A program made the position numbers and the translations under genes. A DNA stretch of 64,000 nucleotides from Candidatus Multivoradales bacterium (GTDB lineage: Bacteria; Acidobacteriota; Thermoanaerobaculia; Multivoradales; J023), in assembly GCA_965248925.1 (NCBI GenBank), contig CBDFLE010000004.1, positions 160,001-224,000 on the forward strand. The letters run 5' to 3'. Shown here piece after piece: positions 1 to 37,318 of the stretch; position 1 is the first letter of the stretch, and each line of letters begins with the position of its first letter. The notes beneath the pieces are model-generated. The model had not been told where the DNA came from and made no database searches. It saw only the letters and a program-made list of their open reading frames with translations.

Positions 1-2561
1 CCGGCCGGCGCACCGCCGGCTGGCAAGTCCAGGATGCCGGCAACCAGCTGTTGCTCGGCGAAAGCCTGAGCTGGACCCCCGGCTCGCGGCTGGCCACCGC
101 CACCCGCACCGATTTGGGTGGCCTCACCCGTCGTTACGGCTACCAGGACGGTCGCTTGATCTCGGCCATCCAGACTGGCGGCCCGGCCTCCAGCGCCCCG
201 GCCGCCACCGGCTGGGCCGACGTGCCCGCGAGCTTCACCTACAGCTACGACCGAGCCCAGAATCTGCTGGGGATGGACTTCGCACAAAGCTGCGCAGCCA
301 CCCAGGTCGCCCTGCCGCTGGATGGCAGCGGCTGGAACCGCCCGGCTTCAGTAGCCGGCGAAGCGCTCCAGTGGACCGCTCGCCAGGAGCTGGCGAGCAA
401 AGGAAACTTCAACTTCACTTACAGCTGGGACCACCGTCCGATCGAACTCAGGCGCAACGGGGTGACGATCGCCTCCTACAAATACGACTCCCAGGGACGC
501 CGAGTCGAGCGCCAAGTCGGCGCCGACACCTACACCACCGTCTGGTCTGGCTGGCAGCCGATCGAAGAGTACAAGAACGGTCTATTGCACAGCCGCCGCA
601 CCTACGGCGTCGGTCTCGACGAACTTATTCGCCTCGAAAGCGACCTCGACGGCGACGGTGTCTTGGAGCAGGAATACCTACCCTTCTACGACACGATCGG
701 CAACCTCGTCCTACTCACCAACGAAGCCGGCAAGCCCATCGAACGCTACGCCTACGGCCCCTACGGCCGGCAGTGGATCGTCGCCGACTCGACCGCGCCG
801 GTAGTCGAGCAGATCCGCATGAAAGGCGACGAGCTGTGGCTCGAACTCTCAGAAGAAGTGCGGCTCGACCGCCTGCAAGCCGCCGCAAGTGCCGGCACGC
901 TGACGCTGGTCAACGCCCTCGGCGAAGAGATCAGCTTGCAGATCGAGCAGCCCGTCGACAACGGCCGCGCCGCCCGGCGGCGCGTGGTGCTGAGCGAGGC
1001 GCCGAGCCAGAATCCCCCACGCTGGCCAGCGGCGGGCGAGACTGCCACCCTGACTATCCCAGCCGGAGCCCTGGTCGACCTCTTCGAAAACAAAGGCGCG
1101 GCCGTGGCCGAAGCTATGACCTGGCCGACCATCGCGGACGAGATCCACAGCGACACCGCCCCTCCCCAGCTGCTCCAGGCTTGCGTCACACCGCAGAGAA
1201 AAGTCGAGCTGGACTTCAGCGAGCCCCTCGACGAAGCGACCCTCGACACCATCCAGCTCAACAGCGTGGCAACCACCTGGACCGTCTCCGCCGATGGCTA
1301 CCGCCTGACCAGCGGCGCCCTCGCGGTCGGCTCCAACACCCTGCTGGTAGACGGCGAACTGAAAGACCTCGCCGGCACCTCGCTAGCCGGCATCGTGAGC
1401 GAGATCTTCATCGTCAACCCAGGTCAGGGCACGATCATCCACAGCGCCCCCTACGCCGGGCAGATCTCCGCCTCGGCCACCGGTAACCCGTTTGGCTTCA
1501 AAGGCTTGCCGCGAGACCCGGAGAGTGGGCTGATCTATGTGCGCAACCGCTACTACGATCCAGAAATGGGTCGGTGGATCACCTCCGATCCACTGGGACT
1601 CGTCGATGGGCCGGGGCAGTATGCCTTTGTCGGCGGGGATCCGGTGAATTTTGGCGACCCGATGGGACTCTTCAATGTCGGGTTGGGGCCGTGTGGTGCA
1701 GTTGTAGATGCCGAGAGGCGAGCAGAGTGCCTGGCGAAGTCTCGGTTGGGGGCTCAGCAGTTTGACCAGGCTGTCACTACCGCGTTAGCCAATCCCTATG
1801 TACAGGGCAGCCTTCAAGTCATCGGTGGTTGTACCGAAGCGGTTGTCGGAGGTGCTGCCGTGCTCTCCGGCGCGGGGGTCTTGCCGGGTGCTGTCGCTCT
1901 TGCTCATGGCACCGATCTGTGCGGGACGGGAATCTCAACGCTCATCGTGGGCGAGACTCAGGAGACCCTCTTCTATCAGGGTGCAACAGCTGGCTTGGTG
2001 GCAAGCGGAGTCGATCCGTACTATGCTGGTTGGGCCGCGGCAGGGCTGGACCTTGGAGTCGGGATCGGCGCTACTCGGGCTGTTGGGCGCTCGTTTGCGC
2101 GGGCTGCGACCACTGGGACGGCAGCTAAGTCCCGAGTGCCGCGAGTGAACCTCGCAAATCCAGTAAATCCGCTATTTGACAGCGAGGACTTAGTCTACGG
2201 TCTGTACAGGGCGACAACACGAAGCAGAAGGAGCGGCCTCGCTACGTTCAATCCGACCTTGGATCTAAGGAATAGAGCGGGCGGTAGACTTTTGACTTCT
2301 TTCGACAAGCCACCGGAATTGGACTGGGTTCGATTCAGCATACTCAAAATGGACGAAGTGTTGGCAAGCGGAAGAAAGATTCGTTTTAACCTGAGCTACC
2401 TTGAGGATGTTGATAACCTAATTCTCGGCCAAGGGAGGTATGGTGCATCAATTACGGCCAGTGAGCTGCGGTACCTGCGAGATAATTGGGGACGGTTTGA
2501 GAACAACGTTGTTTTTTACAAGCACTATCGAGTGGTGAGGTCGCCATGGCAAGTTCAGTAG
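1..2561 (+). CDS. Rhs/YD-repeat polymorphic toxin A, 5'-partial (type II core); C-terminal toxin domain of unknown family
   Basis: The frame is open from the window start and near-identical to 34385-35990. It has YD repeats and the Rhs core RYYDPEMGRWITSDPLG...DPVNFGDPMG. GC drops after ~1670. A Gly/Ala-rich hydrophobic segment precedes a unique tip. Confidence 0.93.
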   Translation, partial: GRRTAGWQVQDAGNQLLLGESLSWTPGSRLATATRTDLGGLTRRYGYQDGRLISAIQTGGPASSAPAATGWADVPASFTYSYDRAQNLLGMDFAQSCAATQVALPLDGSGWNRPASVAGEALQWTARQELASKGNFNFTYSWDHRPIELRRNGVTIASYKYDSQGRRVERQVGADTYTTVWSGWQPIEEYKNGLLHSRRTYGVGLDELIRLESDLDGDGVLEQEYLPFYDTIGNLVLLTNEAGKPIERYAYGPYGRQWIVADSTAPVVEQIRMKGDELWLELSEEVRLDRLQAAASAGTLTLVNALGEEISLQIEQPVDNGRAARRRVVLSEAPSQNPPRWPAAGETATLTIPAGALVDLFENKGAAVAEAMTWPTIADEIHSDTAPPQLLQACVTPQRKVELDFSEPLDEATLDTIQLNSVATTWTVSADGYRLTSGALAVGSNTLLVDGELKDLAGTSLAGIVSEIFIVNPGQGTIIHSAPYAGQISASATGNPFGFKGLPRDPESGLIYVRNRYYDPEMGRWITSDPLGLVDGPGQYAFVGGDPVNFGDPMGLFNVGLGPCGAVVDAERRAECLAKSRLGAQQFDQAVTTALANPYVQGSLQVIGGCTEAVVGGAAVLSGAGVLPGAVALAHGTDLCGTGISTLIVGETQETLFYQGATAGLVASGVDPYYAGWAAAGLDLGVGIGATRAVGRSFARAATTGTAAKSRVPRVNLANPVNPLFDSEDLVYGLYRATTRSRRSGLATFNPTLDLRNRAGGRLLTSFDKPPELDWVRFSILKMDEVLASGRKIRFNLSYLEDVDNLILGQGRYGASITASELRYLRDNWGRFENNVVFYKHYRVVRSPWQVQ

Positions 2562-3028
2562 TTCTTCCGTTATCAGGCACTGGTTCGATTGAGCTTGTAG
2601 AACAGTGGGTTGATGGTAAAGAGAGAAGACCGCAGCGGTCAACTTACTTTGACTCCCATAGATTTAGAGACTGTGTCCTTTGGTCGGTTTCAGTGCGTTG
2701 CATTGATAGTGAAGTGCGACTGGGGAGTGCAAGTAGAGGTTCTTGGGTTTCTGCGTTCCGGTCCTTCGCGTCGAGCATCAATGCTCTGAAATTTAAGTTT
2801 GAGAAGTTTCTGGGGGAGAACGTCTACTTGTTACTATACCTACACGATGAGTGTGGGCCTTTCGCGAATCTCTATGTCGTTGAATACGGTCGGCGGCAGA
2901 TTGAACTTGGGTGGCAGGTTGGCACAGGTAAAATCGAGAGGAGCGGCATCGAGATTGATCGCGCATTGGTTGAAACTTGGCCGAGTCTTCTTCGAGTGTC
3001 CCGTCCGCCGCGTCCACAATCAGATTAG
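2546..3028 (+). CDS. Putative immunity protein for toxin A
   Basis: Small low-GC ORF overlapping the toxin stop. Its last ~10 codons (VSRPPRPQSD*) are supplied by the TGT repeat that starts at 2997. Confidence 0.75.
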   Translation: MASSVVLPLSGTGSIELVEQWVDGKERRPQRSTYFDSHRFRDCVLWSVSVRCIDSEVRLGSASRGSWVSAFRSFASSINALKFKFEKFLGENVYLLLYLHDECGPFANLYVVEYGRRQIELGWQVGTGKIERSGIEIDRALVETWPSLLRVSRPPRPQSD

Positions 3029-3207
3029 TAGCCAAACGGCCACTTTACTGGTCGCCGGCCCTCATTGATGGACCCGCTCCTTGTCGCTCCTCCTCAGCTC
3101 ACGCCGAGTCAGGAAATCCATGGAAACTTGCGGTGTCCCGTCCGCCGCGTCCACAGCCAAAATTTGTCCCGTCCGCCACGTCCACATGTCCCGTCCGCCG
3201 CGTCCAC
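2997..3207 (+). repeat. Cluster 1 of the TGTCCCGTCCGCCGCGTCCAC element-end motif (4 copies at 2997, 3134, 3165, 3187)
   Basis: Direct repeats read from the sequence. The 5' TGTCCC is invariant and the downstream flanks are truncated to different lengths. Confidence 0.95.
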
Positions 3208-3413
3208 GAACAGAATAGTGGCTAAAAGGCCACTTTATTGACCGTTTAGCCACGCCGGTAAGTCGGCACCGTGCCGATCATCCTCAGCGCATTCTGAAAA
3301 TCTTCCCAGTCGACCGCCCTCTTCGCTCACCGGCCGGAAATCGTGCCCCATGGTCGCACGTCACCGTGGACAGCGCGTCGCAGCAGCCCATCAACTCTCC
3401 AGCCTGAGCCGCT

Positions 3414-4328
3414 CTACTTGGGCGCATGGAAGCCAGAGAGCACTCCTTGCCAGGCGGTCATGAATCGTAGGTGCCCTCGTGAGGGCTGGCGGCCGGTCCA
3501 GATCTCTGCCGGTGTGCAGCCGTCGAGGTTCTGGTGCGGGCGCAGTTCGTTATACCAAAACCGGAAGACATCCAACTGTCGCTGGGTCTTGTGGCCCGCT
3601 GGCAGCGGCTCGCGCCGCCGCCGCAGGCGCTCTTTGAAGGTGCCGAAGAAGCGCTCGATACGTCCGTTCTGCCACGGCGAGGCCAGCTGGGTGCGCTGGT
3701 GGCGAATACCCAGTATGGCCAGCGAAAGCCGGAAGATCCAAGATGTAAAGACTGGCTCGTTGTCAGTGCGCAAGCACTTTGGCTTGCCGCATAGCTCGAT
3801 CGTGTCGAGCAGCTGGCGCACCAGTTCGACCGATGCTTTGGTCTTCACTGCTTGAAGGCTCAAGCAGAGCCGAGTGCCGTGGTCGAGCAGGCCGAAGATG
3901 GTTTCTTTCTGGCCGGCGGTGTTATCAGCGTAGGTGAGATCGGCGGCCCAGATCAGCCGCTTGCCGCCGATCCCAGGTTTTCTCCTGCGGATCTTCCGGC
4001 GCCAAGCGAGAATCTCCAGCTGGTGCTCGTTGAAGATCTTTGCAACGTAGCTCTTGCCCACCGTCATTCGGCGATGGCGGTAGTTGCGATTGAAGGCTGC
4101 CGCGATCGCCCTACAGCCATCGTCGGGCTGCAACGCCTTGAGCCGGATCACCGCTTGGCGCACCCACTTGGGCTTGCGCCGGCAGAAGCCGCGACAAGTC
4201 GTCGGGTCGGGTGGACACTTGGCTCGGCGGCGGTGCTTTGCTCTGGGTCGCAGGGCGAAGGAAGTGAGCGCAAGAATCAGAAGCAACACGAACGCCCAGA
4301 GAAGGGCGCCGGCAAGGTCGGAAGTCAT
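3414..4328 (-). CDS. rve/DDE integrase-core protein (IS481/IS3-like fold) with N-terminal hydrophobic helix, copy 1
   Basis: DDE triad motifs WAADLT, LRTDNEPVF and NGRIERFFGTFK; C-terminal WYNELRPHQNL; HTH-like region upstream. Four intact paralogs in the window. Confidence 0.92.
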   Translation of the reverse strand: MTSDLAGALLWAFVLLLILALTSFALRPRAKHRRRAKCPPDPTTCRGFCRRKPKWVRQAVIRLKALQPDDGCRAIAAAFNRNYRHRRMTVGKSYVAKIFNEHQLEILAWRRKIRRRKPGIGGKRLIWAADLTYADNTAGQKETIFGLLDHGTRLCLSLQAVKTKASVELVRQLLDTIELCGKPKCLRTDNEPVFTSWIFRLSLAILGIRHQRTQLASPWQNGRIERFFGTFKERLRRRREPLPAGHKTQRQLDVFRFWYNELRPHQNLDGCTPAEIWTGRQPSRGHLRFMTAWQGVLSGFHAPK

Positions 4329-4378
4329 TCCTTGAGAATACCGATCTGGCGCAGCCTAGCACGAGGCGCCGCGTTCTC

Positions 4379-4846
4379 TTACTGATCACCTCCCGAATGC
4401 CAGAAGCCCGGCTTGTGCAACTCCAGCACGAAGTCCACCTCGGCGGCCCTCGTCTCGTAGTCACGCCGCTCCTTCGCCGCCGCGATCCTGGCGGCGATCT
4501 CGCTGGCCAGGTGCTCTCCCTTGCCGGGTCGCGTCGGCAAGGCTTCTCTGGCCACATCGCGGAGGACTTGCTCCACCAGCGCCCGGTCCTTCTTCTTCGG
4601 GTCGCTAGCGTGGTTGAGAAACCACAGGATCAGCGCCGCGGGCTCGAGGAAACGGTGGTTGACCGCGGCCAGGAAGGCCGCAGTCAGCTCTTCGATCGGC
4701 GCGCCGGCAGAAAGCTTTATCTCGGCCAGGCTGTCGATGCTGGAATGATTGAGTCGCTGGTTGGCGCCGGTGATCTGAGCGGCGATCTGGCGTACTGTCT
4801 GGTGGATCTGTTCGGTGGTCATAGGCTTTCTGGACAGAGTGGCCAT
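4379..4846 (-). CDS. Conserved 155-aa hypothetical protein of the repeat unit, copy 1
   Basis: AGGAGG RBS upstream on the minus strand. Near-identical intact copies at 26751 and 60693. Confidence 0.8.
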   Translation of the reverse strand: MATLSRKPMTTEQIHQTVRQIAAQITGANQRLNHSSIDSLAEIKLSAGAPIEELTAAFLAAVNHRFLEPAALILWFLNHASDPKKKDRALVEQVLRDVAREALPTRPGKGEHLASEIAARIAAAKERRDYETRAAEVDFVLELHKPGFWHSGGDQ

Positions 4847-4871
4847 TCTGGTGTTCCTCCTAGGTGATCTA

Positions 4872-5009: not shown

Positions 5010-5025
5010 TTTGAGGTCACGGTTC

Positions 5026-9935: not shown

Positions 9936-12900
9936 ATGCCAAAACAGCCCTCTCTGCGCTTTCTCCTCATCCTCCAGGTCTCTCTCGGAGTTCTCTTACT
10001 GTCGGCGAGTGCCGCTCAGGCGGCGCCGGTCTTTGTCTCGGTAACCCCCGTCGACGGCACTCTGTCGAGCGCCGCGTCGGTGACTCTGACGATCGAGGTG
10101 CAGGCCGCTGCCAGCTTGCAGGTGGACGGCCAAGCGGTCACTACGGTCGATCCCTCGGGGACGGTGTGGACCGCCGGCCCCTACTCGCTGAGCGAAGGGG
10201 AGCGGGTGTTCGTGTTGATCGCCGAGGACGCTTCTGGGGTGCAGGCTCAGCAGCTGCACCGGGTGGTGCGGGACTCGCTGCCGCCGGTGCTGAGCTTGAG
10301 CCAGCCGGCGGCGGGGGCGATCGTTGCCAGCTCGCCGCTCATCGTGGTCGGCACGGCGGTGGATGCGCATCTGGCGGCGGTGCGGGTGGGGGGCCAGGTG
10401 GCGGCTCTCAGTGGTGCGAGTTTTTCGCACTCTCTGGTCTTGGTGGAGGGCGAGCAGACGTTCACCGTGGAGGCGAGCGACAGCCTGGGGCAGAGCGGGC
10501 AGCAGAGTGTGACGGTGACTCTCGATAGCCAGCCGCCGACGGTGGCGCTGTTGGAAGGAGCTCAGCCGTTGGCGGCGGATGCGCTGTTCAATCGCTCGGT
10601 GGTGCTGAGCTTCAGCGTCACGGATGCGACGGCTACGACGGTCGAAGCGCTGCTCGACGGCGCTTCATTCACCTCCGGCACGACGGTGAGCGCGGCGGGT
10701 TCGCATGTGTTCTCAGTGACCGCCACCGACGCGGCTGGCCAGCCGACTAGCGTCAGCCGGAGCTTTGAGATCGACCTGACGGCGCCGTCTTTTCTCAGCT
10801 TCACGCCGAGCGATGGCACGCTCTTGGCAGACTCGCAGGTGACCCTCAGCGGGGTGGTGGAGGGTGCGGCCGCGCTGAGTGTCGAGGGGCAGGCGGCGAG
10901 CCTGGTGGGGCAGTCGTGGACGGCCGGGGCGTTGCAGCTGATCGAGGGGGAGCGGGAGATTTCTATCCTCGCTACTGATCTGGCGGGCAATAGCGCCTCG
11001 TTCACCTTGCATTTGGAGCGCGACGCGACGGCGCCGCAGCTGATCGGCCTGGTGCCCAGCCTGGACACGGTTCTGGCGACCTCGCCGGTGGCCGTAAGCG
11101 GCACCGCGAGTGACGCCCACTTGCTGGAGGTGCGGGTGGGGGGCGAGCTGGCGAGCCTGACGGGCTCGCAGTTCAGCCACCCGGCGGTAGTGCTGGTGGA
11201 GGGTGAGAATCTCCTGCCGATCGTGGCCACGGATCAGGTGGGCCATCAGGCGACGGCCGAGCTGCGGCTGGTGCTCGACACCCAAGCACCGACGCTGTCG
11301 CTGCTGGTGGCGGGAGTGCCGCTGCAGGGTGGGGCGGTGTTCGCCGGCCCGGTGACGCCTGAGATCTCGGCCAGCGACGCCACCGAGGTGGTGACGTCGG
11401 CGACTCTCGACGGCGCCACCTACCTGCCGGGGACGGTGATTGATGGCGATGGCTTGCATCAGCTGTCGGTGAGCGCCAGCGACGCGGCGGGCCATCAGGC
11501 GACGGTGCTGGTGAGCTTCAGCCTCGACCTGGCGGCGCCGGTGTTCGCGGATCTGGCGCCGGTGGATGGCAGTGTGGACAGCGGGGCTCAGGTGACGCTG
11601 ACCGGCCGCGCGCCGGGGGCGGTGTCGGTGTCGGTGGACGGGCAGGCGGCGACGCTGGCGGGGGATGGCTTCAGCGCCGGTCCCTTCAATTTGAGCGAGG
11701 GAGAGCGGGTGTTCTTGCTCGCCGCCACCGATAGCGGCGGCAACGTCACCCAGCTGACCCACCACCTGACTCGCGATTCGACGGCGCCGCAGCTCACTCT
11801 CGGCCAGCCGGCGGCCGGAGCCCTGCTGGGGAGTACCTCGGTCGATGTCAGCGGTACGGCGAGTGATCCGCGTCTCGATCAGGTGACGGTCAATGGGGTG
11901 CTGGCCGAGCTCAGTGGCGGCGCTTTCCTGGCCCGTCAGGTGCCGCTTATTGAAGGTGACAATGTACTCACGGTGGTGGCGGCGGACACGGTGGGCAACG
12001 AGGTCCAAACGACCCGCTCGGTGACCGTTGATACGACGCCGCCGACGGTCGTCATCACCGACCCGGCCAGCGGCACGATCACCCCCGAGGCGGGGCTGAC
12101 CCTGTCGGGCAGCGCCGCGGATCCTCATCTCGATCGGGTCGAGGTGGCGGGGGTGGGGGCGAGCTTGGCGGGTGGGCAATGGTCGTTGGCGGTGGATCTG
12201 CAAGAGGGCAGTAACACTTTCACCGTCGAAGCCTTCGACCCGCTCGGCCACAGCACCAGCGCTAGCGTCACGGTGACCCGCGACAGCTCGGCGCCTGAGA
12301 TCCACATCGAGAGCCCGGCCGAGGGGCTTTACAGCCCAGCAGCGAATCTCACGGTCAGCGGCACGGTGGTCGCGGAGCCCGATTTGACGGTGACGGTGGG
12401 CGGCGTGGCGGCGACGGTGGCGGGCAGTAGCTGGAGCGCCGCCGCGGTGCCGCTAGTAGAGGGTGAGAACCGGCTGATCGCAAGGGTGACCGACGCCCTG
12501 GGCAACCAAGGCACTCACACGCGGGTGGTGTGGCGCGACAACCAAGCGCCGGAGTTTCTATCGTCGATCCCCGCCGCGGGGGCTCTCGAGCTGCCGGCCG
12601 GCAGCAGCTTCCGGCTGCGCTTCAGCGAGCCGTTGGCGGCGCCCAGCGGGGGCGCCTACAGCCTCAGCACCTTGGCCGGGCAAGCCCTGGCGAGCAGCGC
12701 CGAGATCGATGGCGACGACTTGGTGATCACCCCGCAGGCAGCACTGCCGTCGGCCACCGAGCTGCGCCTGGTGCTAGGGGCGGGGCTGGTCGATCGGGCG
12801 GGCAATGCTCTAGCGGCGGCTCATACTCTGGCTTTCACCGTGGTCGATGGCGGCTCCCCGGCGGCGCCGCAGCTCGACGCCTACGCTAGCTATCTCTGTG

Positions 12901-15900
12901 CGCCGGCTACCACCCTTGCCGGCAGTGCCGAGCCTGGTGCTTGGATCGAGGTAGATGGCGGGGCCTCAGTAGGAGCGGGGCAGGTGGCAGACGATGGCCG
13001 TTTCGCCATCAGCGTCGTGCTGCTGCCCGAGGGGCCGAATCACCTGACGGTGATCGCCGTCGACGCCGCGGGCAACCCCTCGCCCGCGACGAGCGCCGAT
13101 ATCGTCCACGATTGCACCGCGCCGGAAGTGCTGGGTGCCAGCCGGGAGGCGGCGGGATTCCGCATCGCCCTCAGCGAGACGGTCGACCCGCTGAGCTTGA
13201 GCGGCTCGGTGCGGGTGTACGACGGCGGGATGGAAATCGCCGGCACAGAGAGTGCGACTGCCAGCGAGCTGATCTGGACCGCCAGCGGAGCGTTGCCAGC
13301 AGTCGCTCTGCTGGTCGAAGTCGAGGGAGCTTTGGCGGACCTGGCCGGCAACCCGTTGGCTTTCCCCTACCGGCAACTCTTCGATATAGCCCTGGGCGGT
13401 AGCTTCTTCTCTGGCACCGCTATCGACGACGCCAGCGGCCGGCCGCTGGCCGGGGTGCGGGCGGTGGTGACGGCTAGCGACGGGGTGGCCCTGGCCGAGC
13501 CCTGGCCGGAGCAGACCAGCGGCGAGGACGGTCGCCTGGTGATCGCTCTGCCCGCCGGCACTCACGACGTGACCTTTGCCCGGCCGGGCTACACGCCGGT
13601 GTTTCGGGTGGTGACGACGGTCGACGGCCAAGGCACGGACGTTTTCGACCCTCGCCTGACGCCGGCCGCGGCGGCGGTGTCGATAGATGCATCGGGCGGC
13701 TTGGTGGAGGGCTCTTCCGAGGTCGGCACGGCGCCGCGTCTCACTCTTCCGCTCGCCGGCCTGGCGTCGGCTGCGGCGGTGCGCCTGACGGCGGTGGGCG
13801 GCCAGGGGCTGGCCGCCTTGCTGCCCTACGGCTGGGCACCGCGGGGTGCCGTCTGGGTGGATCTCTCGGCCGTGAATCTGGATAGTTCCGCGACCCTCGA
13901 TCTGCCGGTGACCTCGGCCGACGGGACGGTCCTGGAAGCGGTGACTCTCGATCTCGCCACCCTGCAATGGCGTTCGCTGGGGGTGGTGACGGTGAGCGGC
14001 GGCGAGGTCACGATGACCGTCGACGGCGAAGGAGCCTGGGCGGCGGTGGAAGCCGACTCGGGAGCTTTGGCGCCGCCCCCGGCGGTCGCTGGCCAGATGC
14101 TGGGCTCCTCGGCCGCGCCGCCGTCCGGCGGGGTGACTAGCGCCAGCCTGAGCTTCGATCCCGAGGTGGTCTTGCCGACGCAGCGCAGCTGGGTACAGGT
14201 GCTCTACGGGCTGGCGGCGGAGGTGCCGAGCGGGGTGCCGCTGACTTTGTCGATCGAGGAGCGGCTGGAGCTACTCGATGGCAGCGTGCGGCGGATCAGT
14301 CCCTACAGCGCCGATCTGGTGCTCTACCGCGATTCGCTGGGCGATCCGACCTCGAGGTTCCGCCTGCGGCCTTCGGCCGCGGCGCGCAGCCTGCCGGTGC
14401 GGCTAGGTGCCGAGCAAGTCAGCGTGCGGTCCTACGGTGATGAGACGGTGCGCGGCAACGTGCTCGGCCCCGACGGCGGGGTGGTGTCGAGTGCCGAGGG
14501 CGATCAGGTGGTGTTGCCGACGGGAGCCCTCGAGGAGCCCACGGCGGTGACCCTGAGTCGCCGGACAGTGGCAGATCTGCCGCTGGCTCCACCCGCTGGT
14601 GGCACGGTCGATGGCGTCTTGGAGCTGGACCTTGCCGGCCGCCGGCTGTTGCTGCCGGCTGAGTTGTCGTGGTCGCTGACCCCGGCACCGGCTGCTGGCA
14701 CGCCGGGTTTGTTGCTAGGGGTGGTGGAAGTGGAAGGCGAGCCGCGCTATCGGGCGATTGCCGAGCTGGAAGCCACCGCCACGGGCTGGAGGACCCAGGC
14801 GATTGACGCTGCCGATCTGGCCTGGCCGGGGGTGCTGGAAGGTGGTTTGTACGTTTTCTTGCGCCTCGATGCGGCACCGCGCTTTGTGCGGGGCATGGTG
14901 CTTGACCCAGGAGGTGCTCCGGTCGTGGGCGCGGTGGTCGAGTCGACGACGGTGCCTTGGCTCCAGATCTCAGCCGCCGAGGGTGGCTACGTGCTGCCGA
15001 TTCTGCTGGATGCCGCCACTCTCAGCGCGCGGCGCGCGGTCACCGGCAACGCGGTGGCGGTGGCGCTGCCGGCCGGGGTTGCGGCGGAGCGGGTCGATCT
15101 CGATCTGCCGCTACAGATCGTGGCGCCGTGGGTCGAGCAGATCACTCCGTCAGCGGGCACCAGCGGAGTGTTGCTCGGGGTCAATCCAGTGGTGCGTTTC
15201 AGCGAGCCGGTGGATCGGGCCTCGCTCGATGGCGCTATCGAGCTGCGCCAGGGGGGCGTGGCGGTGGCGGTGGCACTCGATCACCAGGGCGCCCTGGTCA
15301 CCCTGCTACCGCAGGCGACGCTGGTGCCTGGCAGTGAGTACGAGGTCTGGGTGGGGGCGGCGGTGCGTGACTTGCAGGGCTATGGGCTGAGCGGCTCGGT
15401 GAGCGTGCTGTTTAGCACCGAGGTGGTGGCGACGCCAGCCGGGGTCGATCGCGGGCGGATCTTCCTGGTCGAGCCCGATGCCCAGGGGCTGGCGCGAGTG
15501 GAGGGCGTGGCGGGGGCGGCGCCGGCCGGCACGCTGGTCTTCGTCGAAAACCTGACGTCGTTCTCGACCACCGAGTCTGTACAGAGCGCGGGTGACGGTA
15601 GCTTCCTGCTGACGATCGGCGCCAGCCTCGAGGATCAGCTGCTGCTGCATGTGCTGATCGATGGGGGTAACGAGGTAGTGATCCTGCTGACTCCGTTCCT
15701 GGGCGCCGACCTGCGCACCGGCCTGGCGGGGACGGGGGCGGGGGAGTTTACGACCGCCGATGGAATCACTGTACGCTACTCGGCTGGCACCTTCGCCGGG
15801 CCGTCCAGGGTAAAGGTGACGCCGATCGCCATGGGCACGCTCGCGGCGGCAGAAGACTTCAGCGAGCTGGTGACCTTCCGGCTGGAGATCGCCGGCGCGC

Positions 15901-18900
15901 AGCCACTGAAGCCGCTGGAAGTGACGATGGCGGCGCCGGCTGGCACCGCACCAGCTGGCACCGCAGCGGGCAGCCTCTGGCTGCTGCGCCGGCAGCTCGA
16001 GATTGCCGATTTACCGTGGATGGTCCACGCCGAGCTGGCTCTCGATGGCGGTGAGCTGAGCACGATCCACACCGTGGGCGAAGCCCAATCCGCCAACTCC
16101 GGCGAGGTGGGTGGCACCAAGTCAGGCACGTTTGACGTGCCGGCCCCTCTGCGGGTACTGAGCCCGGCAGAAGCCGCCGCGCGGCTGCCGCGCTCGGGCT
16201 TCTTGAGCGCTCTGCCGCCTGCTGACCCAGCGGCTCTGGTCGAGGTCGAGCCGCCCCTGGCCGGCTTGGGAGCGGCCAAGGCGACCGTCGCCCCTACCTT
16301 GGCGGACTATCTGGTCGGCGTCTCCCGCCCCGGCGTCTATCAGGCAGCGCGGGCCGAGGTCGAGCTGGGTTGGATCGCCTTCCCCTTCCGTGGCGCCCAA
16401 GACCTGGTGGTGCGCAGCGCCGAGTTGCCCGAGGTGGTGCTGGCGCTCGATGCGGTCAACCGCTCCTTCCTGCCGCTAGGCGCCGGTGCCTTGCCGGTTG
16501 AACTCAGCCCGACGCCATTGAACGCCGATCCCGCCGCGCCGGGGACCAAGGCGCCGCCAGCGGGCGAGCCCAAGGCCGACTCGGTGGAGATCCAGGTGCT
16601 CGATTTCGCCGGTGTCGAGCTTTACCGGCTGGTGGTCGACGCCCCGACCCAGCAGCTGGTGCTGCTGACCCCCAGCCAGCTACCCAACGCCGGGCCGCCC
16701 ATGCCGCTGGGCGGTGGGCCGCTGCGCTTCCATGCTTTTAGCGCCGCTCCAGGCACTAGCGAGATCGCCGCCGGCATCAGCGCCGAGCTGGAGGGTAACT
16801 CGCTCACCGTGCGCGGCGAGGCCGGCAGTGCCGGAGCTGGAGTGGCGGTGCGTTTGATCGATCTAGAAAGCTCGAACGTGCTCAGCGCTACGGCTTCTCC
16901 AGGCGGTAGCTTCAGCGTCGTCGCCAGTCCGTCGCAGCTCGGCGATCAGCTGGTGCTGGCGATCTCGGCCAAGCTCACTCCCGGCCAGCCGCTGCGCCTC
17001 GACTTCTCAGAAGCCTTGCAAGAAGAGGCGCCAGGTATCCGGGTCGAGCACGACGGGATGGCGCTGCCGATCACCAAAGAGCCTCTGGGCAGCTGGGCAC
17101 AGCTGCGGATCCATGGCGGCTGGCAGGCTGGCAAGACCTACAACTTGCGCCTGGACTCGACCATGGCCGACGCCGCCGGCTTACCTTGGGACGCAAACAT
17201 GACTCTGCCTTTCGAAGTCGCCGAATCGAGCGCCGGCACTAGCTTCGCGCTCGACGAGGCGCACGACATCGCGCGCCTCGGCTCGTTGCTCTTCGTGGCC
17301 GCCGGAGCCGATGGCCTGGCGGTGCTCGACGCCAGCGACCCGCGCCAGCTGAAGAACTGGCTGGCGGCTGAGACCTACGTCGACCTGGTCGCGGAGCCCG
17401 GTCTACCGGTGCGCGGGGTGGCGACCGACAGCCATGGCCGGGTGGTGGCAGTAGGGGGTGGCGTCGCCCGCCGGGGGGTGCTGCTGATCCTCGATCCGCA
17501 AGAGCTGCCCCAGGGTGCCGCGACGGTGCCCGCGGCGGCGATTCTCGGCCGCACCCTCCTCACCGAGCCCCAGCTGGCTGGCTCGGGTGCCCCGCCGCTG
17601 CTCATCGGTCGGCCGCTGGAGGTCGAAATCTTCAACCGCGACCAGAGCACGACTTGGACGCTGGGGGAGGCGGTGCCGCCGGGCCTCACCCTGGCCCCGC
17701 CCAGTCCACCGAGCGGCACGGCGGCCGTCTCGCTCACGGTCAGCGGCATGGCGACGGCGGAGCGTCCGGTGACCTTGCGCAATCTCACCACCGGCGAGCG
17801 CGACAGCGCTCGCGTCGGCAGTGCTGGTGGCGGCGGTGCTGGCAGTTTCTCCCTGAGTCTCAGCGTGCAGCGCGGCGACCGCCTGGAGCTACTGCGCAAC
17901 GAGCTGTCCCTGGCCTACGTGGCAGGTTACGACGCCGGGGTGGTGACGGTGGATCTGAACGCCGTCGAAGCGGCCGATGAGGAAGTCGACGATCCTTGGG
18001 ATGCTTTCGATCTGCTGCGCTACAACACTCATTATTTTGTACCGACCGAGGTGCTGTGCTCGACGTTTGAGAACGATCAGCGCTTCGACGTGATCGACGC
18101 GCGGGTGCTGCCGGCGGCGTCGGAGGGCGAGCCTTGGAGCGTGCTGGCTCTGGTTGAGAACTATGGCTTGCTGTCGCTCGGTGCCTCGGTCGCCACTCCG
18201 CTGGAGAAGCTGGCCTACCGCGACGCTCTGTGCGGCGAGGTCGACGGCAACCGCAAGCTGGGCGGTCTCGATGTGCTGCCCGGCTACCGCTTCGACCGTA
18301 ACGGCGACGGTGTGCTGGACGACACTGAGCCCGAGCGTGACTACGCGCTGCTCACCAACACCGTCGGTGGCGGCGGTCGTGGCTGGCTGCTGATTGTCGA
18401 TGTCACCGAGCGCGATGAGCTGCGCCGGGTGGGCCGCATCGAGCTGCCCGGCCCGGCGACGCGGGTGACCGCCGATGCAATCGGCCGCCGCGCCCTGGTC
18501 TCAGGCCTCGGTGGCGGGGTCTACATCGTCGACCTCGACCGGTGGCCCGAGCTGGGTGGCGGCGGCGGAACCCCTCAGATCTGGTCGAGCGATCGGGTGG
18601 TCGAGCGCCTGAGCTTTGGCGAGGACGTGCGCGCCCCCACCCTGGTGGCTCCAGAACTGGGCCTGGCCTTCGCCGGTGGCGTTGCCCGCGGCGTGACCCC
18701 CCTCAGCACCGGCCTGCCACGCCTGTCGCTGGTGACTAGCGGCAAAAAGGGACTGCGCCGGGTCGCCCGGTTGGCGCCATTTGGCGCGCCTAGCGCGCCG
18801 GAGAGCGCCGAGGAAGGTGCCGAAGAAATACCCGGCCTGATCCGCGTGCAGGCGCAGCTTCCCGGTGGCCTGGCCGATGCCGAGGGCAAGATCCGCGTCG

Positions 18901-21900
18901 ACCTCGCGGGCATCGGCCCCGCCGGGCTGCCGCTGCGCGGCCTTGGTGAGGGGCTGATGGACGAGCCCGTGGCCGAGCTGAAAGACGATAAGGCGCTGGT
19001 GCTGCAACGGCAGTCAGACAACCCCCTCTCAGAGGGCTACAACGTCTTCCTCTCCGACCCGGTGGTGCTGCTGGCCGATGTACGCGCTTCGGCGCATTTC
19101 GAGCGCTCGGAGGCCGAGAAGAAGGTCTGCCGCCGCTGCGACCTGGTGGACGAGGGGGTCTACACCGCGGCCGATCTACCTCCCAACGAGCTGCATGTCG
19201 AGCTGCTGTCGGGCCATCAAGTGCGGGCTAGCTACAGCGCAGCCTTCGCCACCAGCCTTGCCGGCCTCTACGATGCCGACCTGCTAGCGGGCTACGCCGT
19301 CGTCGCCGACAGCGTGCCCTGGGATCTCAGCCCCTCGCCGCACCAGGAGCCGGTACTCAATGCCGCCACTAGCGCGATGGCGGCGCCGGGCACCCTCTTG
19401 CACTCAGGAGAGATGACCCGCCAGGCGATCGACTTAAGCCTCCAAGGCCGGGGATTGGACCTCGCCTTGGTGCGCACCTACCGCAGCCAGACCATCAGCA
19501 ACGGCCCCCTCGGCCCGGGCTGGGATCATGGCTACCGCCTGCGCCTGCGGCTCTTGCCCAATGGCGATATCGACTTCTTCGACGGCACTGGCCGCCGCGA
19601 GACCTTCACCTTGGAAGACGACGGCAAGCTTATGCCGCCCGTCGGCCGCTTCGTCCAGCTCAAGAAGTACGCCGAGGGCTACACCCTGATCGGCAGCGGC
19701 TACCAGCGCTGGCGTTTCGACCGCTGGGGTCGTTTAGTGTCGATGATCGACTCGGTGCGCACCAGCGAAGAGACCGGCAACGAGATCACCTTCCACTACG
19801 ACGCCCACTCGCGCCTGGCGCGAATCCACGACGATCTCGACCGCAACACCTTCCTGCACTACGACGACGAAGGCCGCCTGGAGAAGATCGTCGACTTCAG
19901 TGATCGCGACTTCCTCTACCACTACGACGCCCAGGGAAGATTGACCAGTTTCGAGACTCCAGTCGTCGACCTCGGCAGCGGCAGCAGCCAGCGTCTATCG
20001 ACCACCTACGCCTACCACGCCGCCGGCACCGGCCTGGCTGGCCAGCTCAGCCAACGCGATGATCTGAAAAGCGAGACCGACGCCAAGAGCCAGACCTGGC
20101 TCACCCTGCGGTATCAGGATTCCGACGGCAACGGCCGCCCCGATGCGCTCAAAGAACAAGATTGGGGAGCGGAGACAGTGCATTTGGCCTTCGATTTCGA
20201 CGGCCAGCAGACCACCCTGACCGATCGCCGAGGCAAAGTCTGGACCTACCATCTCAACGCTGCTGGGCAGGCCACCAGCCTGGTCGATCCGAAGTCAGCC
20301 AACGGGTCGTGGCAATACGACGGCGAGGGTCTGCTGACCCGCGCCACCCGCCCCTTGGGTGGGGCTACCCAGATCGAGTATCCGGCGGACACCTCCGGCG
20401 ACCGCCGCGGCAGAGGCGATGCCCAGCGGATGGTTAAGATCGCCGATGGCCGCGGCCCCAACGGCTCGCCCAGCGAGCTGGTGACCACCTGGGAATACCA
20501 CTCACCGACCCACCAGCCCAGCCGAAAAACCGAGCCCGGTGGCGCGGTGACGGTGTGGGAACGGACGGATAATGGCCTGCCCGAGCAGATCGTGCGGGCC
20601 GCTGGCGCGGCGGAGCAGAGCATCACTGGGTTGAGCTACAACGCCCACGGCCAGCTGCTGGAAGCCACCAATCCCAACGGCCACGTCACCCGCCACAGCT
20701 ATTTCACCTCTGGCTCAGAAGAAGGCTACTTGAAGCAAACTGAAGTCGACCCTGGCGGTCTCAGCCTGGTCACCATTTACGAGCGCAACGATCGCGGCCA
20801 GCTGGAGGCGATCACCGATCCGCGAGGCGTGCGCCATGAGACCGAGCTGAACAGGCTGGATTGGCCGCTGGCCCAGGTAGCCGCCGCCAGCACCAGCGGT
20901 TTTCTGGCACCCCTCGGCTACCGCACGACCTGGCGCTATGACGCTAACGGCGACATCAGCGAAGTGTCTAGTCCTTTCGGCGATGGCTCAACTACGACGA
21001 TCGAGGTCCGCACCTACGGCGTGCTCGGCGAGCTGCTGTCGGCCGAGAGAGAGGTGGCTCCAGGGGGTCGACGTATTGTAGAGACCTCGACCTATGACCC
21101 AAACCTGAACCTCTTGACTCACGTCGACGGTGCCGGCCAGCGGGTCGAGCGCGAGTACGACGAGCGAGGACAGTTGTCTCTGGTGCGCCGCGGCTTGGGT
21201 ACCGGCGCATTGGCGACACCGATTGTCGAGCACCAGAGCTACGACCTGGACGGCCATTTGAGCAGTCAGCGCGATGGCCGCGGCATGACCTGGGAGGCCG
21301 AGCGCGATGGCCATGGTCGGGTGCTGCGCAGCCGCTCGCCTCTCGGCCACTACCGAGAGCAACGCTACAATCCGGCCGGCGATCTGGCTGCCCTGCTGGC
21401 CTACGATGCCGGGGGGCAGCTGCTAGTCGAGAGTGCTTTTGCCTACGATCTGCTGCACCGCCGCACCGAGACCACCGCCTGGCGCTGGACACCGGACCCG
21501 CAGCAGCCCGACCCCTCTCGTACCGCTGAGAAGACTCACCATCGGTGGGACGCCGCCAGCAACCTGCTCGAAGTCGAAGATCCGCTGGGTCGCCTGACCA
21601 GGACTTCTTACGATGCTGCCGAGCGCCCCGAGCGAGTGGAGCTGCCCGAGGGCAACGTGCGCCGCACGACCTACGATTCTGGTGGCTTGCCGATTACCGA
21701 GCATGCCGACGAGGTCGATCCGGCGGGCGGCTCGCACACCATCACCTATCAATCGACTTTCGATGCCCTCGGCCGCCGCCTCAGCCGCCAAGACGGAATC
21801 TTCGCCAACCGCACCCTCTGGACGCTGGATGCTCGCGGCCAGGTGACCCTCGAAATCGACCCGACGGGTCGATTCACCCGGCGCAGCTACGATGGGCTCA

Positions 21901-25541: not shown

Positions 25542-25579
25542 TGTCCCGTCCGCCGCGTTGTCCCGTCCGCCGCGTCCGC
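25542..25579 (+). repeat. Cluster 2 of the TGT element-end motif (17-nt truncated copy at 25542, full copy at 25559)
   Basis: Starts 4 nt after the immunity stop codon. Confidence 0.95.
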
Positions 25580-25785: not shown

Positions 25786-26700
25786 CTACTTGGGCGCATA
25801 GAAGCCAGAGAGCACTCCTTGCCAGGCGGTCATGAATCGTAGGTGCCCCCGTGAGGGCTTGCGGCCGGTCCAGACCTCGGCCGGTGTGCAGCCGTCGAGG
25901 TTCTGATGCGGGCGCAGTTCGTTATACCAAAACCGGAAGACATCCAACTGTCGCTGGGTCTTGTGGCCCGCTGGCAGCGGCTCGCGCCGCCGCCGCAGGC
26001 GCTCTTTGAAGGTGCCGAAGAAGCGCTCGATACGTCCGTTCTGCCACGGCGAGGCCAGCTGGGTGCGCTGGTGGCGAATACCCAGTATGGCCAGCGAAAG
26101 CCGGAAGATCCAAGATGTAAAGACTGGCTCGTTGTCAGTGCGCAAGCACTTTGGCTTGCCGCATAGCTCGATCGTGTCGAGCAGCTGGCGCACCAGTTCG
26201 ACCGATGCTTTGGTCTTCACTGCTTGAAGGCTCAAGCAGAGCCGAGTGCCGTGGTCGAGCAGGCCGAAGATGGTTTCTTTCTGGCCGGCGGTGTTATCAG
26301 CGTAGGTGAGATCGGCGGCCCAGATCAGCCGCTTGCCGCCGATCCCAGGTTTTCTCCTGCGGATCTTCCGGCGCCAAGCGAGAATCTCCAGCTGGTGCTC
26401 GTTGAAGATCTTTGCAACGTAGCTCTTGCCCACCGTCATTCGGCGATGGCGGTAGTTGCGATTGAAGGCTGCCGCGATCGCCCTACAGCCATCGTCGGGC
26501 TGCAACGCCTTGAGCCGGATCACCGCTTGGCGCACCCACTTGGGCTTGCGCCGGCAGAAGCCGCGATAAGTCGTTGGGTCGGGTGGACACTTGGCTCGGC
26601 GGCGGTGCTTCGCCCTGGGTTGCAGGGCGAGCGAAGTGAGCGCAAGAATCAGAAGCAACACGAACGCCCAGAGCAGGACGCCGGCAAGGTCGGAAGTCAT
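25786..26700 (-). CDS. rve/DDE integrase with N-terminal hydrophobic helix, copy 2
   Basis: Near-identical to copy 1; DDE motifs intact. Confidence 0.92.
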   Translation of the reverse strand: MTSDLAGVLLWAFVLLLILALTSLALQPRAKHRRRAKCPPDPTTYRGFCRRKPKWVRQAVIRLKALQPDDGCRAIAAAFNRNYRHRRMTVGKSYVAKIFNEHQLEILAWRRKIRRRKPGIGGKRLIWAADLTYADNTAGQKETIFGLLDHGTRLCLSLQAVKTKASVELVRQLLDTIELCGKPKCLRTDNEPVFTSWIFRLSLAILGIRHQRTQLASPWQNGRIERFFGTFKERLRRRREPLPAGHKTQRQLDVFRFWYNELRPHQNLDGCTPAEVWTGRKPSRGHLRFMTAWQGVLSGFYAPK

Positions 26701-36942: not shown

Positions 36943-37256
36943 TGGTAGATTTAGCGGATGAATTGAGGACTGTGCTGTATACGATTTTCTATGTTGAAGA
37001 CTTGTCAGCATTTCAGGGTTTGACCTCCTCTCAGAAGGAAGCATTTCTTCGTGACCATACCCTTGAAGAGTTGGGAAAAATGCGAGATGGTCTCCGGTGG
37101 GGAGTGGCCAATTCTGACTACAATTTCTCATCTCTCTGGGAGGGTCTTAGCTATACTGACCAGGAGATTCTGAGGTATGTAGAAATATTACTGAGGGATT
37201 TTGAAGAATTTGTGCCGAAGCTGTCCCGTCCGCCGCGTCCACAGCCAAAATTGTAG
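36942..37256 (+). CDS. Putative cytoplasmic immunity protein for toxin C
   Basis: GTG overlaps the toxin TAG; acidic, helical 104 aa; low GC. The C-terminal LSRPPRPQPKL* is supplied by the TGT repeat. Confidence 0.8.
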   Translation: MVDLADELRTVLYTIFYVEDLSAFQGLTSSQKEAFLRDHTLEELGKMRDGLRWGVANSDYNFSSLWEGLSYTDQEILRYVEILLRDFEEFVPKLSRPPRPQPKL

Positions 37257-37318
37257 CCAAACGACCACTTTATTGGTCGCCGTCCCTCATTAGATGGTGT
37301 CCCGTCCGCCGCGTCCAC
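37222..37318 (+). repeat. Cluster 3 of the TGT element-end motif (copies at 37222 and 37298)
   Basis: Two 21-nt copies. The 55 nt between them is a truncated version of the flank that follows the second copy. Confidence 0.95.

Follow-up and report, generated by a model that had tools for sequence, protein, structure and literature searches.

An IS481/IS3-related integrase with a predicted N-terminal signal-anchor helix lies behind RHS toxin/immunity cassettes

We analyzed a 64,000-nucleotide stretch of a contig from Candidatus Multivoradales bacterium (the window) and found four copies of an integrase gene, all of which were located behind, and convergent to, RHS-type/immunity pairs (Table 1). 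Two of the convergent ORFs were related at the DNA level to the RHS gene at 29464-36942, which had been scanned: the first 1613 nt of ORF 3..2561 were 94.8% identical to it, and ORF 9936-25073 shared 2.6 kb with it at 95% identity. The core-end motif of ORF 3..2561 (PVNFGDPMGL) was found at nt 1641 and was followed by a unit-specific toxin tip, while the core end of ORF 9936-25073 (DPLGL) was found at nt 24252. ORF 44049-58976 was 93.7% identical in DNA to ORF 9936-25073 as far as nt 58069. Similarity between the units ended at the RHS core-end motif and returned exactly at the right terminus of the integrase element. Immunity-like ORFs extended into the motif at this terminus, which encoded the tail (..VSRPPRPQSD) of ORF 2546-3028. 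Giant convergent ORFs also adjoined the other copies examined in this genome, including a decayed copy on contig C5. The 155-aa ORF upstream of copy 1 was conserved together with the integrase in this genome and matched no Pfam or NCBIfam family; it was rejected as a partner of the integrase family on the basis of tblastn, which gave no match in 80 foreign loci.

Table 1. Integrase copies, their terminal sequences and the neighboring genes in the window.
Feature	Position	Strand	Remarks
Integrase copy 1, ORF	3414..4328	minus	304 aa, ATG start
Copy 1 hydrophobic helix	codons 5-26, nt 4316-4251		
Copy 1 basic linker	codons 27-52, nt 4250-4173		low-confidence
Copy 1 KPxWV motif and HTH	codons 52-114		
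Copy 1 RNase-H-like DDE core	codons 121-304		
Copy 1 triad	D130, nt 3941-3939; D189, nt 3764-3762; E225, nt 3656-3654		
Copy 1 3' non-coding module	3187..3372	minus	
Two extra tandem copies of 21-nt right-terminus motif	3165-3185, 3134-3154	minus	beyond copy 1 terminus
Solo 112-nt stub	2997..3108	minus	terminus-proximal part of module; overlaps 3' end of ORF 2546-3028
Integrase copy 2	25786..26700	minus	98% protein identity to copy 1
Copy 2 right-terminus motifs	25542..25579	minus	two overlapping matches
Integrase copy 3	37525..38439	minus	93% protein identity to copy 1
Copy 3 right-terminus motifs	37222..37318	minus	37298-37318 and stub 37222-37242
Integrase copy 4	59728..60642	minus	93% protein identity to copy 1
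Copy 4 right-terminus motifs	59443..59521	minus	three matches
C-terminal 852 aa of giant protein	3..2561	plus	taken as RHS-type from its DNA identity to 29464-36942
Candidate immunity ORF	2546..3028	plus	160 aa
Giant ORF	9936..25073	plus	5045 aa; taken as RHS-type from its DNA identity to 29464-36942
Candidate immunity ORF	25064-25537		157 aa; after ORF 9936-25073, convergent with copy 2
RHS-repeat protein	29464..36942	plus	2492 aa; RHS_repeat 9e-65, DUF6531; convergent with copy 3
Giant ORF	44049..58976	plus	4975 aa; convergent with copy 4
Upstream ORF	4379..4846	minus	155 aa; ~50 nt upstream of copy 1

An earlier note on this DNA had reported the ORF of copy 1 as a DDE integrase, and its coordinates, strand and N-terminus (MTSD-LAGALLWAFVLLLILALTSFAL-RPRAKHRRRAK) were all reproduced. 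The uncharged hydrophobic start, the basic stretch, the HTH and the intact D-D-E motif were likewise recovered. An alignment of 31 family members indicated that D130, D189 and E225 were invariant, as was K232, a basic residue 7 positions past E225. Copy 1 matched rve_3 in Pfam (6e-16) and, more weakly, rve and DDE_Tnp_IS240, and structure comparison indicated that its fold resembles retroviral integrases and TnsB. AlphaFold2 modeled an isolated helix at residues 2-25 (pLDDT 87-95) followed by a linker with a pLDDT of ~50. The ESM Atlas yielded nothing beyond clusters annotated as hypothetical or, generically, as "transposase family protein". The best NCBIfam match was transpos_IS481 (NF033577), to which residues 53-276 aligned over model positions 60-283 of 284, followed by transpos_IS3 (NF033516) at 9e-27. 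Membership of IS481 or IS3, as implied earlier, did not hold by the NCBIfam cut-offs of 224 and 160 bits, since the two scores were 108.4 and 94.2 bits, respectively. Judged by sequence, the integrase appears to belong to an unclassified branch of the retroviral-integrase-type (rve) DDE enzymes, with IS481 and IS3 as relatives.

Integrase-type DDE transposases are regarded as soluble DNA enzymes. The 22 residues at positions 5-26 of copy 1 contained no charged residue; the lowest 19-residue Hessa sum was -3.85, while the best window elsewhere in the protein reached +8.4. A near-identical copy in the genome (P0001) had a Kyte-Doolittle mean of 2.66. Homologues number roughly 1,400. We examined 264, of which 216 contained the KPxWV motif and 203 of those had a leader of at least 25 aa, and scored a leader as hydrophobic at a Kyte-Doolittle mean of ≥1.6, which is a crude threshold. 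The helix calls rest on these two hydrophobicity scales. Homologues could have been without the hydrophobic segment; instead, 126 of the 203 full leaders passed, and 166 reached a mean of ≥1.2, while the rest of the same proteins passed in 4 of 203. Among the homologues listed, 76 of 120 family members reached a 19-residue mean of ≥1.6 within the first 60 aa as compared to none of 120 controls, the latter being the listed homologues of one IS3-type transposase from the same genome. When the DNA was translated directly, the gene frame passed in 32 of 61 loci and the other frames in 5 and 14. Most family leaders had 19-23 uncharged residues at the extreme N-terminus and then a strong basic cluster, and the hydrophobic character was retained in relatives with wholly different leader sequences. 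The hydrophobic head is thus a family-wide trait, found in hundreds of relatives from many bacterial groups. A compositional artefact of GC-rich DNA was rejected since AT-rich members from Fibrobacteria (locus L025) and Campylobacteraceae (locus L046) retained the head.

The mean net charge of the 203 proteins was +4.27 in the 15 residues behind the hydrophobic window and +0.15 ahead of it. This pattern agreed with the earlier proposal, made from the positive-inside rule, that the catalytic domain faces the cytoplasm, and it fits an N-out/C-in signal anchor. We rejected a cleavable Sec signal peptide: the basic residues are behind the hydrophobic core, not ahead of it, and residue 4 is acidic. 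The uncharged stretch and the charge bias are those of a single-pass signal anchor (N-out/C-in), and from them we infer membrane insertion in this topology. The N-terminus could also be translated and not serve as an anchor, acting instead as a helix for self-association, a tag for aggregation or degradation, or a surface for docking a partner protein. Transposase activity is commonly held low, as would fit such a tag, and 77 of the 203 leaders were below 1.6, many of them Trp/Tyr/Gln-rich and aromatic or amphipathic (e.g. MLWLYLFYQWINQLFF) and not clean apolar runs. On the other hand, the uncharged run with its basic cluster, present in most members, is the classic signature of a signal anchor, and the modeled helix is separated from the core by a linker predicted to be disordered. 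Furthermore, hydrophobicity is conserved while sequence is not, a pattern more in keeping with lipid exposure than with a specific protein interface. We therefore consider a function other than anchoring unlikely.

Whether the segment is read as protein depends on the start codon. Residues 27-55 of copy 1 contain no M, V or L, so no ATG, GTG or TTG is possible between the helix and the family-invariant KPxWV. A start within or after the hydrophobic stretch, with the upstream codons being left-end DNA of the element, could use a position such as the in-frame codon 14 inside the helix; this codon reads GTG in copies 1-3, while copy 4 and three others have ATG. Consistent with such a start, a Shine-Dalgarno-like AAGGA directly abuts ATG(1) with zero spacer, and the left boundary of the element lies just 0-50 nt ahead of the start codon, with its terminal TGT overlapping an ATG in two loci. 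However, hydrophobicity over at least 19 residues is held in the gene frame, while nucleotide similarity between diverged members starts only at the KPxWV codons; left-end DNA under sequence constraint should show conservation at the nucleotide level, like that of the right end. Many loci also have their first start codon 1-10 codons past an in-frame stop, immediately ahead of the hydrophobic run, and the changes in codons 1-13 across the nine full-length copies of this genome were all synonymous or conservative. An internal start is accordingly very improbable. The impossibility of a start between helix and KPxWV, the conserved hydrophobicity and the selection on the whole gene described below bear out the earlier suggestion that the segment is translated, which by these sequence criteria it very probably is.

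A promoter scan of positions 2900-5200 found no sigma-70-like promoter, and the same interval had 4 terminator-like sites as compared to 2.0 expected. Rfam identified no known RNA family at positions 2800-5200. A start at codon 14 in this genome could give a protein with half a helix.

The genome contained nine full-length copies, four of them in the window, with 89-100% protein identity, as well as fragments; none of the full-length copies had a stop codon. Among codons 1-27 of the four window copies, six variable codons were synonymous, including GCG/GCC and TTG/TTA, and five carried replacements. The earlier note had described the differences in this segment as synonymous or hydrophobic-conservative, which stood for the six synonymous codons and for A8V, W11C, V14M and F24L, but R27Q, at the helix border, fell outside. 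Of 36 pairs, 33 differed at synonymous sites; in these the whole-gene dN/dS was 0.14-0.37 (~0.2) and dS reached 0.28, indicating that the integrase gene is under purifying selection. For codons 1-27 dN/dS was relaxed at 0.46, a value pooled over non-independent pairs with few changes. We rejected the possibility that the copies are dead pseudogenes, given these dN/dS values and the intact frames.

The integrase copies were 6-12% diverged in DNA, and had co-diverged and remained co-linear with their own 12-22-kb units, unlike a neighboring true IS present in >25 near-identical copies. No recent transposition of the integrase element was seen in this genome, as the copies had co-diverged with the units. 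Rather than fresh IS copies, they are paralogues that have diverged and become fixed behind RHS toxin/immunity cassettes. A plasmid-borne IS was also rejected since only 1 of 72,556 plasmid records held a relative (E ≤ 1e-20). These observations, together with the purifying selection and the return of unit similarity exactly at the right terminus, favor a domesticated part of the toxin locus, which would serve as a downstream homology arm or as a recombination function for tip/immunity swaps and would not be a selfish transposase. For a homology arm, however, an open frame and a catalytic triad would be dispensable, and both were retained. In addition, related elements occurred in differing flanks in Gallionellaceae and other genomes (loci L033, L034, L097 and L053) and about six foreign loci adjoined housekeeping genes, pointing to real mobility. 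We regard domestication as an improbable account of the family.

The element is ~1.2 kb long and its ends read TGT...ACA. Its right terminus (...GGACGGGACA-3') was found on the gene strand in 53 of 72 loci and on the opposite strand in none of the 72. The 3' module measured 166-209 nt and was closed by an inverted repeat; in copy 1, the inverted partners were an internal motif from nt 3372 onwards (CTGTCCACGG) and the right terminus, which finishes at nt 3187 (...GTGGACGCGGCGGACGGGACA). The terminal repeats read GGAC-N3/4-GGACGGGACA, and the internal site reads CTGTCCRCGG. At the left edge, the element started with TGT in loci L081 and L083; in locus L028 the edge was TGTCCCG, which matches the right end over 7 nt. 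As regards a target-site duplication of a few bp, CC often followed the right terminus (28 and 36 of the 53 loci at positions +1 and +2), and also occurred ahead of three left edges. We searched for an extended left inverted repeat and found none in the window (21-mer with ≤3 mismatches; 13-mer with ≤1 mismatch). None was found in 80 foreign loci with a 12-mer (≤2 mismatches), by local alignment of the right end with 700 nt upstream, or by counting TGTCC/GGACA positions.

Of the 57 evaluable foreign loci, 43 had a convergent ORF that was ≥400 aa long; 14 of the 43 had RHS_repeat and 7 had Fil_haemagg_2. In at least 21 of the 57, from many phyla, the integrase was likewise behind, and convergent to, RHS or CdiA-like genes. 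A Nitrincola array contained four integrases alternating with orphan toxin fragments, and one contig (C126 of G012) contained three same-strand copies at a spacing of ~4.6 kb; in both of these tandem arrays, as in the window, the integrase was positioned between successive toxin/immunity modules. Placement behind toxin cassettes is therefore a trait of the family, and one that had been overlooked in the first reading.

On balance, we think that the protein is probably the transposase of a compact IS-like element, equipped with a signal-anchor helix and specialised for polymorphic-toxin loci. The first ~25 residues would form the N-terminal signal-anchor helix, with the few residues ahead of it facing the periplasm and the rest of the protein (basic, flexible linker of ~25 residues, HTH and catalytic core) suspended in the cytoplasm, so that the enzyme would act while tethered to the membrane's inner face. 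The element immediately follows the immunity gene of RHS or CdiA-type toxins, in convergent orientation, and its right terminus marks the outer limit of the variable toxin-tip/immunity cassette. As to the purpose of the anchor, we can offer only a tentative suggestion: co-translational insertion might hold the enzyme near its own gene. Tethering could then restrict the enzyme to acting in cis and to DNA near the membrane, such as the loci of exported proteins, and limit damage elsewhere. The analysis gave no support to the earlier ideas that the protein is coupled to DNA uptake or release, or that proteolysis activates it. More speculatively, and in our opinion with little likelihood, integrase and 3' module may constitute a cassette-handling system for polymorphic toxins, integron-like in role, DDE-based and membrane-tethered. 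The single conserved end would then be joined straight to the tail of the toxin/immunity cassette. The module, closed by a lineage-specific stem, would not be an ordinary transposon end but would fold, as DNA or RNA, into an element for recognition or guidance, and the anchor would confine the reaction to the membrane-proximal loci of exported toxins.

If the signal-anchor transposase is borne out, it would be the first clear case found of a transposase built for membrane work, and in a cross-phylum family. Our literature search, which covered neither supplements nor subscription journals, found no publication describing a membrane helix in a transposase. The family would offer a concrete system for how cellular location limits transposition through cis action and target choice. 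Since a defined end sequence lies exactly at the cassette border, the family is a testable candidate for cassette exchange. It is thus a candidate for how new toxin tips and immunity genes enter Rhs and CDI loci, and for why transposase/integrase genes are so frequent in orphan arrays.

The integrase resembles the IS481 family in having a single ORF of ~300 aa, an HTH ahead of a DD(35)E core with K232 after E225, and an element of ~1.2 kb with TGT...ACA ends. It differs in that a hydrophobic helix and basic linker replace the first ~59 model positions, and in that its element, in which no extended left inverted repeat was found, has a 3' module closed by an inverted repeat of its own and sits behind toxin cassettes. 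With the OrfB of the IS3 family it shares the rve/rve_3 catalytic core, but it is a single ORF with no OrfA and no frameshift, and the hydrophobic N-terminus was absent from the listed IS3-type homologues. Another transposase gene that we take to be habitually linked to Rhs is that of H-rpt (ISAs1-family) in the Rhs loci of E. coli; it presumably belongs to a different transposase superfamily, and we know of no reported membrane segment in it. Proteins of the ToxR/CadC type act on chromosomal DNA from one inner-membrane helix, which lies between a cytoplasmic N-terminal DNA-binding domain and a periplasmic sensor domain. They are a functional analogy, not homologous, for how a membrane-held integrase could reach DNA; in the integrase, by contrast, the predicted helix is at the extreme N-terminus and almost nothing would lie outside the membrane. 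Transposase/integrase genes between orphan cdiA-CT/cdiI and rhs-CT modules are described in passages of PMC4927057 and of the review PMC7662968. Such orphan CDI/Rhs arrays, with displaced toxin/immunity modules in tandem and mobile-element genes, have exactly the layout seen in Nitrincola and in the RHS-type array of the window, although the passages concerned give no family, membrane helix or conserved end for these genes. Integron platforms have one tyrosine recombinase beside an array of promoterless cassettes that each end in a folded recombination site, as compared to one DDE integrase per cassette here; the sole resemblance is that the 3' module lying at the edges of the cassettes is palindromic.

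The integrase is an intact DDE enzyme under selection with a conserved signal-anchor-like head. It opens with MTSD, followed by 22 uncharged residues (LAGALLWAFVLLLILALTSFAL) and the basic stretch RPRAKHRRRAK. Pfam analysis identified an rve_3 core at 6e-16, with weaker matches to rve and DDE_Tnp_IS240. The best NCBIfam models were IS481, at 108 bits against a cut-off of 224, and IS3, at 94 bits against 160, and the protein is well below membership in either. A search for further copies in the genome that contains the window (8.0 Mb in six contigs) identified nine full-length, stop-free copies as well as fragments; the nine proteins are 89-100% identical and share the identical ATG and architecture, and four of them lie inside the window, each on the minus strand. 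Synonymous changes account for six of the variable codons among the window copies in the segment 1-27, and replacements for five (A8V, W11C, V14M, F24L and R27Q). The earlier note had thus described the segment and its differences between copies accurately. AlphaFold2 with a 31-sequence alignment (mean pLDDT 88.7) modeled a lone helix at residues 2-25 (pLDDT 87-95), a linker to residue 53 (pLDDT ~50), four helices (54-114) and then an RNase-H-like core. The nearest solved structures were retroviral integrases and TnsB.

We then assessed the head across the family. A word-indexed search for relatives returned 1,389 at E <= 0.001 among 5,113 candidates, and an exhaustive search against representatives at 50% identity returned 4,775 matches at E <= 0.001, 166 of them at E <= 1e-30. 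We fetched 264 foreign family proteins, of which 216 carried a KPxWV-like motif; in 203 of these 216 the leader ahead of it was 25 aa or longer, the median leader being 51 aa. A head was scored as hydrophobic when a 19-residue window averaged 1.6 or more on the Kyte-Doolittle scale, with 1.2 as a looser threshold. The leaders reached 1.6 in 126/203 proteins and 1.2 in 166/203, while the remainder of the same proteins passed the test in only 4/203. The mean net charge was +4.27 in the 15 residues behind the hydrophobic window versus +0.15 ahead of it. Taking one representative per 50%-identity cluster, 53 of 96 passed. As a control we took an IS3-type transposase that this genome also encodes (249 bits with the IS3 model); none of its 120 best relatives passed at either threshold, as compared to 76/120 (1.6) and 95/120 (1.2) for the integrase family. 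When 61 distinct loci were translated from DNA, the gene frame passed in 32 and the other frames in 5 and 14. The head sequences of diverged members were mutually unrelated. Hydrophobicity kept without sequence, at the extreme N-terminus and followed by a basic cluster, is characteristic of a signal-anchor helix. The hydrophobic segment reported earlier was thus confirmed, and it is strengthened by the relatives and the controls; of the interpretation attached to it, a catalytic domain tethered to the membrane, the part upheld is a signal-anchor-like head kept in relatives with basic charge behind it. When diverged members (loci L021-L100) were compared, DNA similarity set in no earlier than the KPxWV codons, which lie ~105-160 nt from the gene start. 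The helix-plus-linker leader evolves far faster than the remaining gene, yet is still hydrophobic and then basic.

Whole-gene dN/dS (Nei-Gojobori) was 0.14-0.37 in those copy pairs, 33 of 36, that have synonymous differences (dS <=0.28), and the copies are maintained genes rather than decaying ones. Pooling gave a dN/dS of 0.16 in the catalytic part, compared with 0.46 in codons 1-27, values that come from non-independent pairs and, for the helix, from small numbers. No M, V or L occurs between the end of the helix and the KPxWV motif, and a common start codon is therefore impossible there. A start inside the helix is possible in this genome and would leave half a helix, since codon 14 is GTG (ATG in four of the copies) and offers an alternative start, and since AAGGA adjoins ATG(1) with zero spacer.

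The gene and a 3' non-coding module make up an IS-like element. Its right terminus, GGAC-N3/4-YGGACRGGACA, lies some 210-270 nt past the integrase stop and is often followed by CC. The 12-mer of this terminus, allowing up to 2 mismatches, was present in 53/72 loci on the gene strand and in 0/72 on the opposite one, and the upstream GGAC, which was outside the search pattern, was also conserved (37-45 of 53 per position). The same terminus closes the Nitrincola and window copies, the proteins of which are only ~45% identical. An internal motif, CTGTCC(G/A)CGG, 40-70 nt past the stop, is the inverted partner of a sub-terminal GCGGACA, and the two are 166-209 nt apart in 40/44 loci. The 5' and 3' arms of one locus paired at a mean of -29.0 kcal/mol versus -27.1 kcal/mol for mixed-locus arms (12 of 10,000 permutations as low as observed), and the own arm was the best partner in only 4/37 loci. 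The mean folding z-score of the module was -1.96 on the gene strand (19/37 below -2) versus -1.44 on the other, and a search of window 2800-5200 against Rfam matched no known RNA family. The module may be an RNA, a DNA hairpin or a pair of protein sites. We mapped the left edge from pairs of related elements with unrelated flanks, in which similarity begins 3, 11-13, 35 or ~50 nt ahead of the start codon. Two left edges open with TGT (TGTAAGCT) and two overlap an ATG, (A)TGTCCCGA and (A)TGTTCCGG, the latter a short mirror of the right end; a longer left inverted repeat was not found in the window or the foreign loci. The element measures about 1.15-1.25 kb and is almost without a 5' leader, hence the membrane-helix codons are among its first. 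The 21-nt right-terminus motif occurs 2-4 times in direct order per copy, and stubs of the right end that lie past the terminus or beside copies may be scars of repeated insertion beside or into a resident copy.

Locations of the integrase, the parts of the array unit and neighboring features
Feature	Location	Strand	Remarks
Integrase copy 1	window 3414-4328	minus	304 aa
Unit part 1			HTH/TPR regulator
Unit part 2			giant ORF, 2,492-5,045 aa
Unit part 3			small candidate immunity ORF
Unit part 4		opposite	integrase; 155-aa ORF upstream of it
Candidate immunity ORFs	window 2546-3028; about 36941-37250		read through the terminus motif
155-aa ORF	window 4379-4846; 26751-27218; matching positions in other units	same as integrase	~50 nt upstream of integrase
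160-aa ORF	window 27389-27871		within an RHS unit, between integrase block and regulator
Right-terminus motif, repeated	window 2997-3207; 37222-37318; 59443-59521
Right-end stubs past terminus	window 3134-3185; 2997-3108		latter a 112-nt solo
Right-end stubs beside two copies	Nitrincola 385293-385403; 395220-395396
Solo remnants of element 3' end	Nitrincola ~404076-404403; 405750-405913; 407877-408050
Different IS	window ~5115-7648		interrupts unit A
ORF of this IS	window 5230-7623		797 aa
IS21-family element	window 38787-41119		just upstream of integrase copy 3

Units of 12-22 kb repeat in tandem across the window. A domain scan showed the 2,492-aa giant ORF to be an RHS-repeat protein; the other giant ORFs share long stretches 94-95% DNA-identical to its gene and are taken as RHS-type on that similarity. 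Similarity between units ends near the RHS core-end motif DPxGL (nt 1641 and 24252) and restarts exactly at the outer terminus of the integrase element, indicating that the unit-specific segment is the toxin tip plus the immunity gene. Since two candidate immunity ORFs run through the terminus motif, cassette and element abut with zero spacer; the tails of these ORFs (...SRPPRPQ) are encoded by the element end. Giant convergent ORFs also adjoin the other genome copies inspected, including the decayed copy on contig C5. DNA divergence among the integrase copies is 6-12% and has proceeded together with that of their units. The 155-aa ORF is kept even at two decayed chromosomal copies; it matched no Pfam or NCBIfam family and had no counterpart in 80 foreign loci. 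The 160-aa ORF carries a pterin-4a-carbinolamine dehydratase domain (3e-10). Elsewhere in this genome (G000), contigs C4 (224000-284747) and C5 (1-66000) hold at least 12 more giant ORFs (1,000-5,000 aa) on one strand, again with the integrase block between giant ORFs. It follows that the RHS-type array extends far beyond the window, and it probably spans a contig break. The IS within unit A is clearly active: its first ~686 nt recur at more than 25 other genome sites at ~99.4% identity, in contrast to the diverged integrase copies. Its ORF scored below every NCBIfam transposase cut-off (best IS630, 22 bits). The IS21-family element encodes IstA (284 bits, above cut-off) and the helper ATPase IstB (265 bits).

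The 80 homologous loci were taken from named genomes belonging to Acidobacteriota, Nitrospirota, Gallionellaceae and other Beta-/Gammaproteobacteria, Campylobacteraceae and Fibrobacteria, and 57 were evaluable, with 2 kb or more of downstream sequence. In 43/57 the integrase was followed by a convergent ORF of 400 aa or longer. RHS_repeat was found in 14 of these ORFs and Fil_haemagg_2 in 7, along with RHS, DUF637, ESPR, TPS, PT-VENN, Tox-REase-7 and NucA/NucB; about six of the 43 were housekeeping genes (amidohydrolase, DctM, DXP synthase, SelB, M20 peptidase and IstB). A position behind toxin cassettes is thus a family trait. In the complete Nitrincola genome (L107 and L108; G001 contig C1 376000-412000), a 2,931-aa protein and a 116-aa partner lead an array in which four opposite-strand integrase genes alternate with orphan toxin fragments 766-1,325 aa long; the second fragment has haemagglutinin repeats and ends in a Tox-REase-7 tip. 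DNA identity among the integrase blocks of this array is 88-92%. The element has a defined right end, and its position is fixed at the far edge of toxin/immunity cassettes. A match at E <= 1e-20 occurred in 11 of 31 genomes of the window's order, its own included, and one contig among them held three same-strand copies ~4.6 kb apart. Only 1 of 72,556 plasmid records carried a relative.

We propose that the integrase would be inserted co-translationally and that a flexible basic tether would hold its catalytic part in the cytoplasm. The enzyme would bind the GGAC repeats and expose the terminal CA-3' in the manner of integrase-type enzymes. Because the 5' leader is short or absent, expression may require transcription entering from outside or an end-to-end junction, by analogy to IS3-type circles. 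For the purpose of the anchor our preferred idea is confinement, which we advance tentatively and with more doubt than belief. Insertion during translation would keep the integrase where it is encoded and close to other membrane-proximal DNA, and confinement would favor cis action and loci for exported proteins. Proteolytic release or coupling to DNA uptake, raised in the earlier note, is conceivable but speculative.

In the accessible text of two reports (PMC4927057, PMC7662968), orphan toxin/immunity arrays hold intervening transposase and integrase genes. Our literature search, with supplements and subscription journals outside it, found no published transposase with a membrane helix. In its action the enzyme resembles IS481- and IS3-type transposases; however, it fails both curated score cut-offs, and the N-terminal region and inverted repeats of those families are missing from it and its element. 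Judged from sequence, what appears to be new is a DDE transposase family with a predicted membrane anchor, and likewise the apparent combination of a single strongly conserved end with a dedicated niche behind polymorphic toxins.
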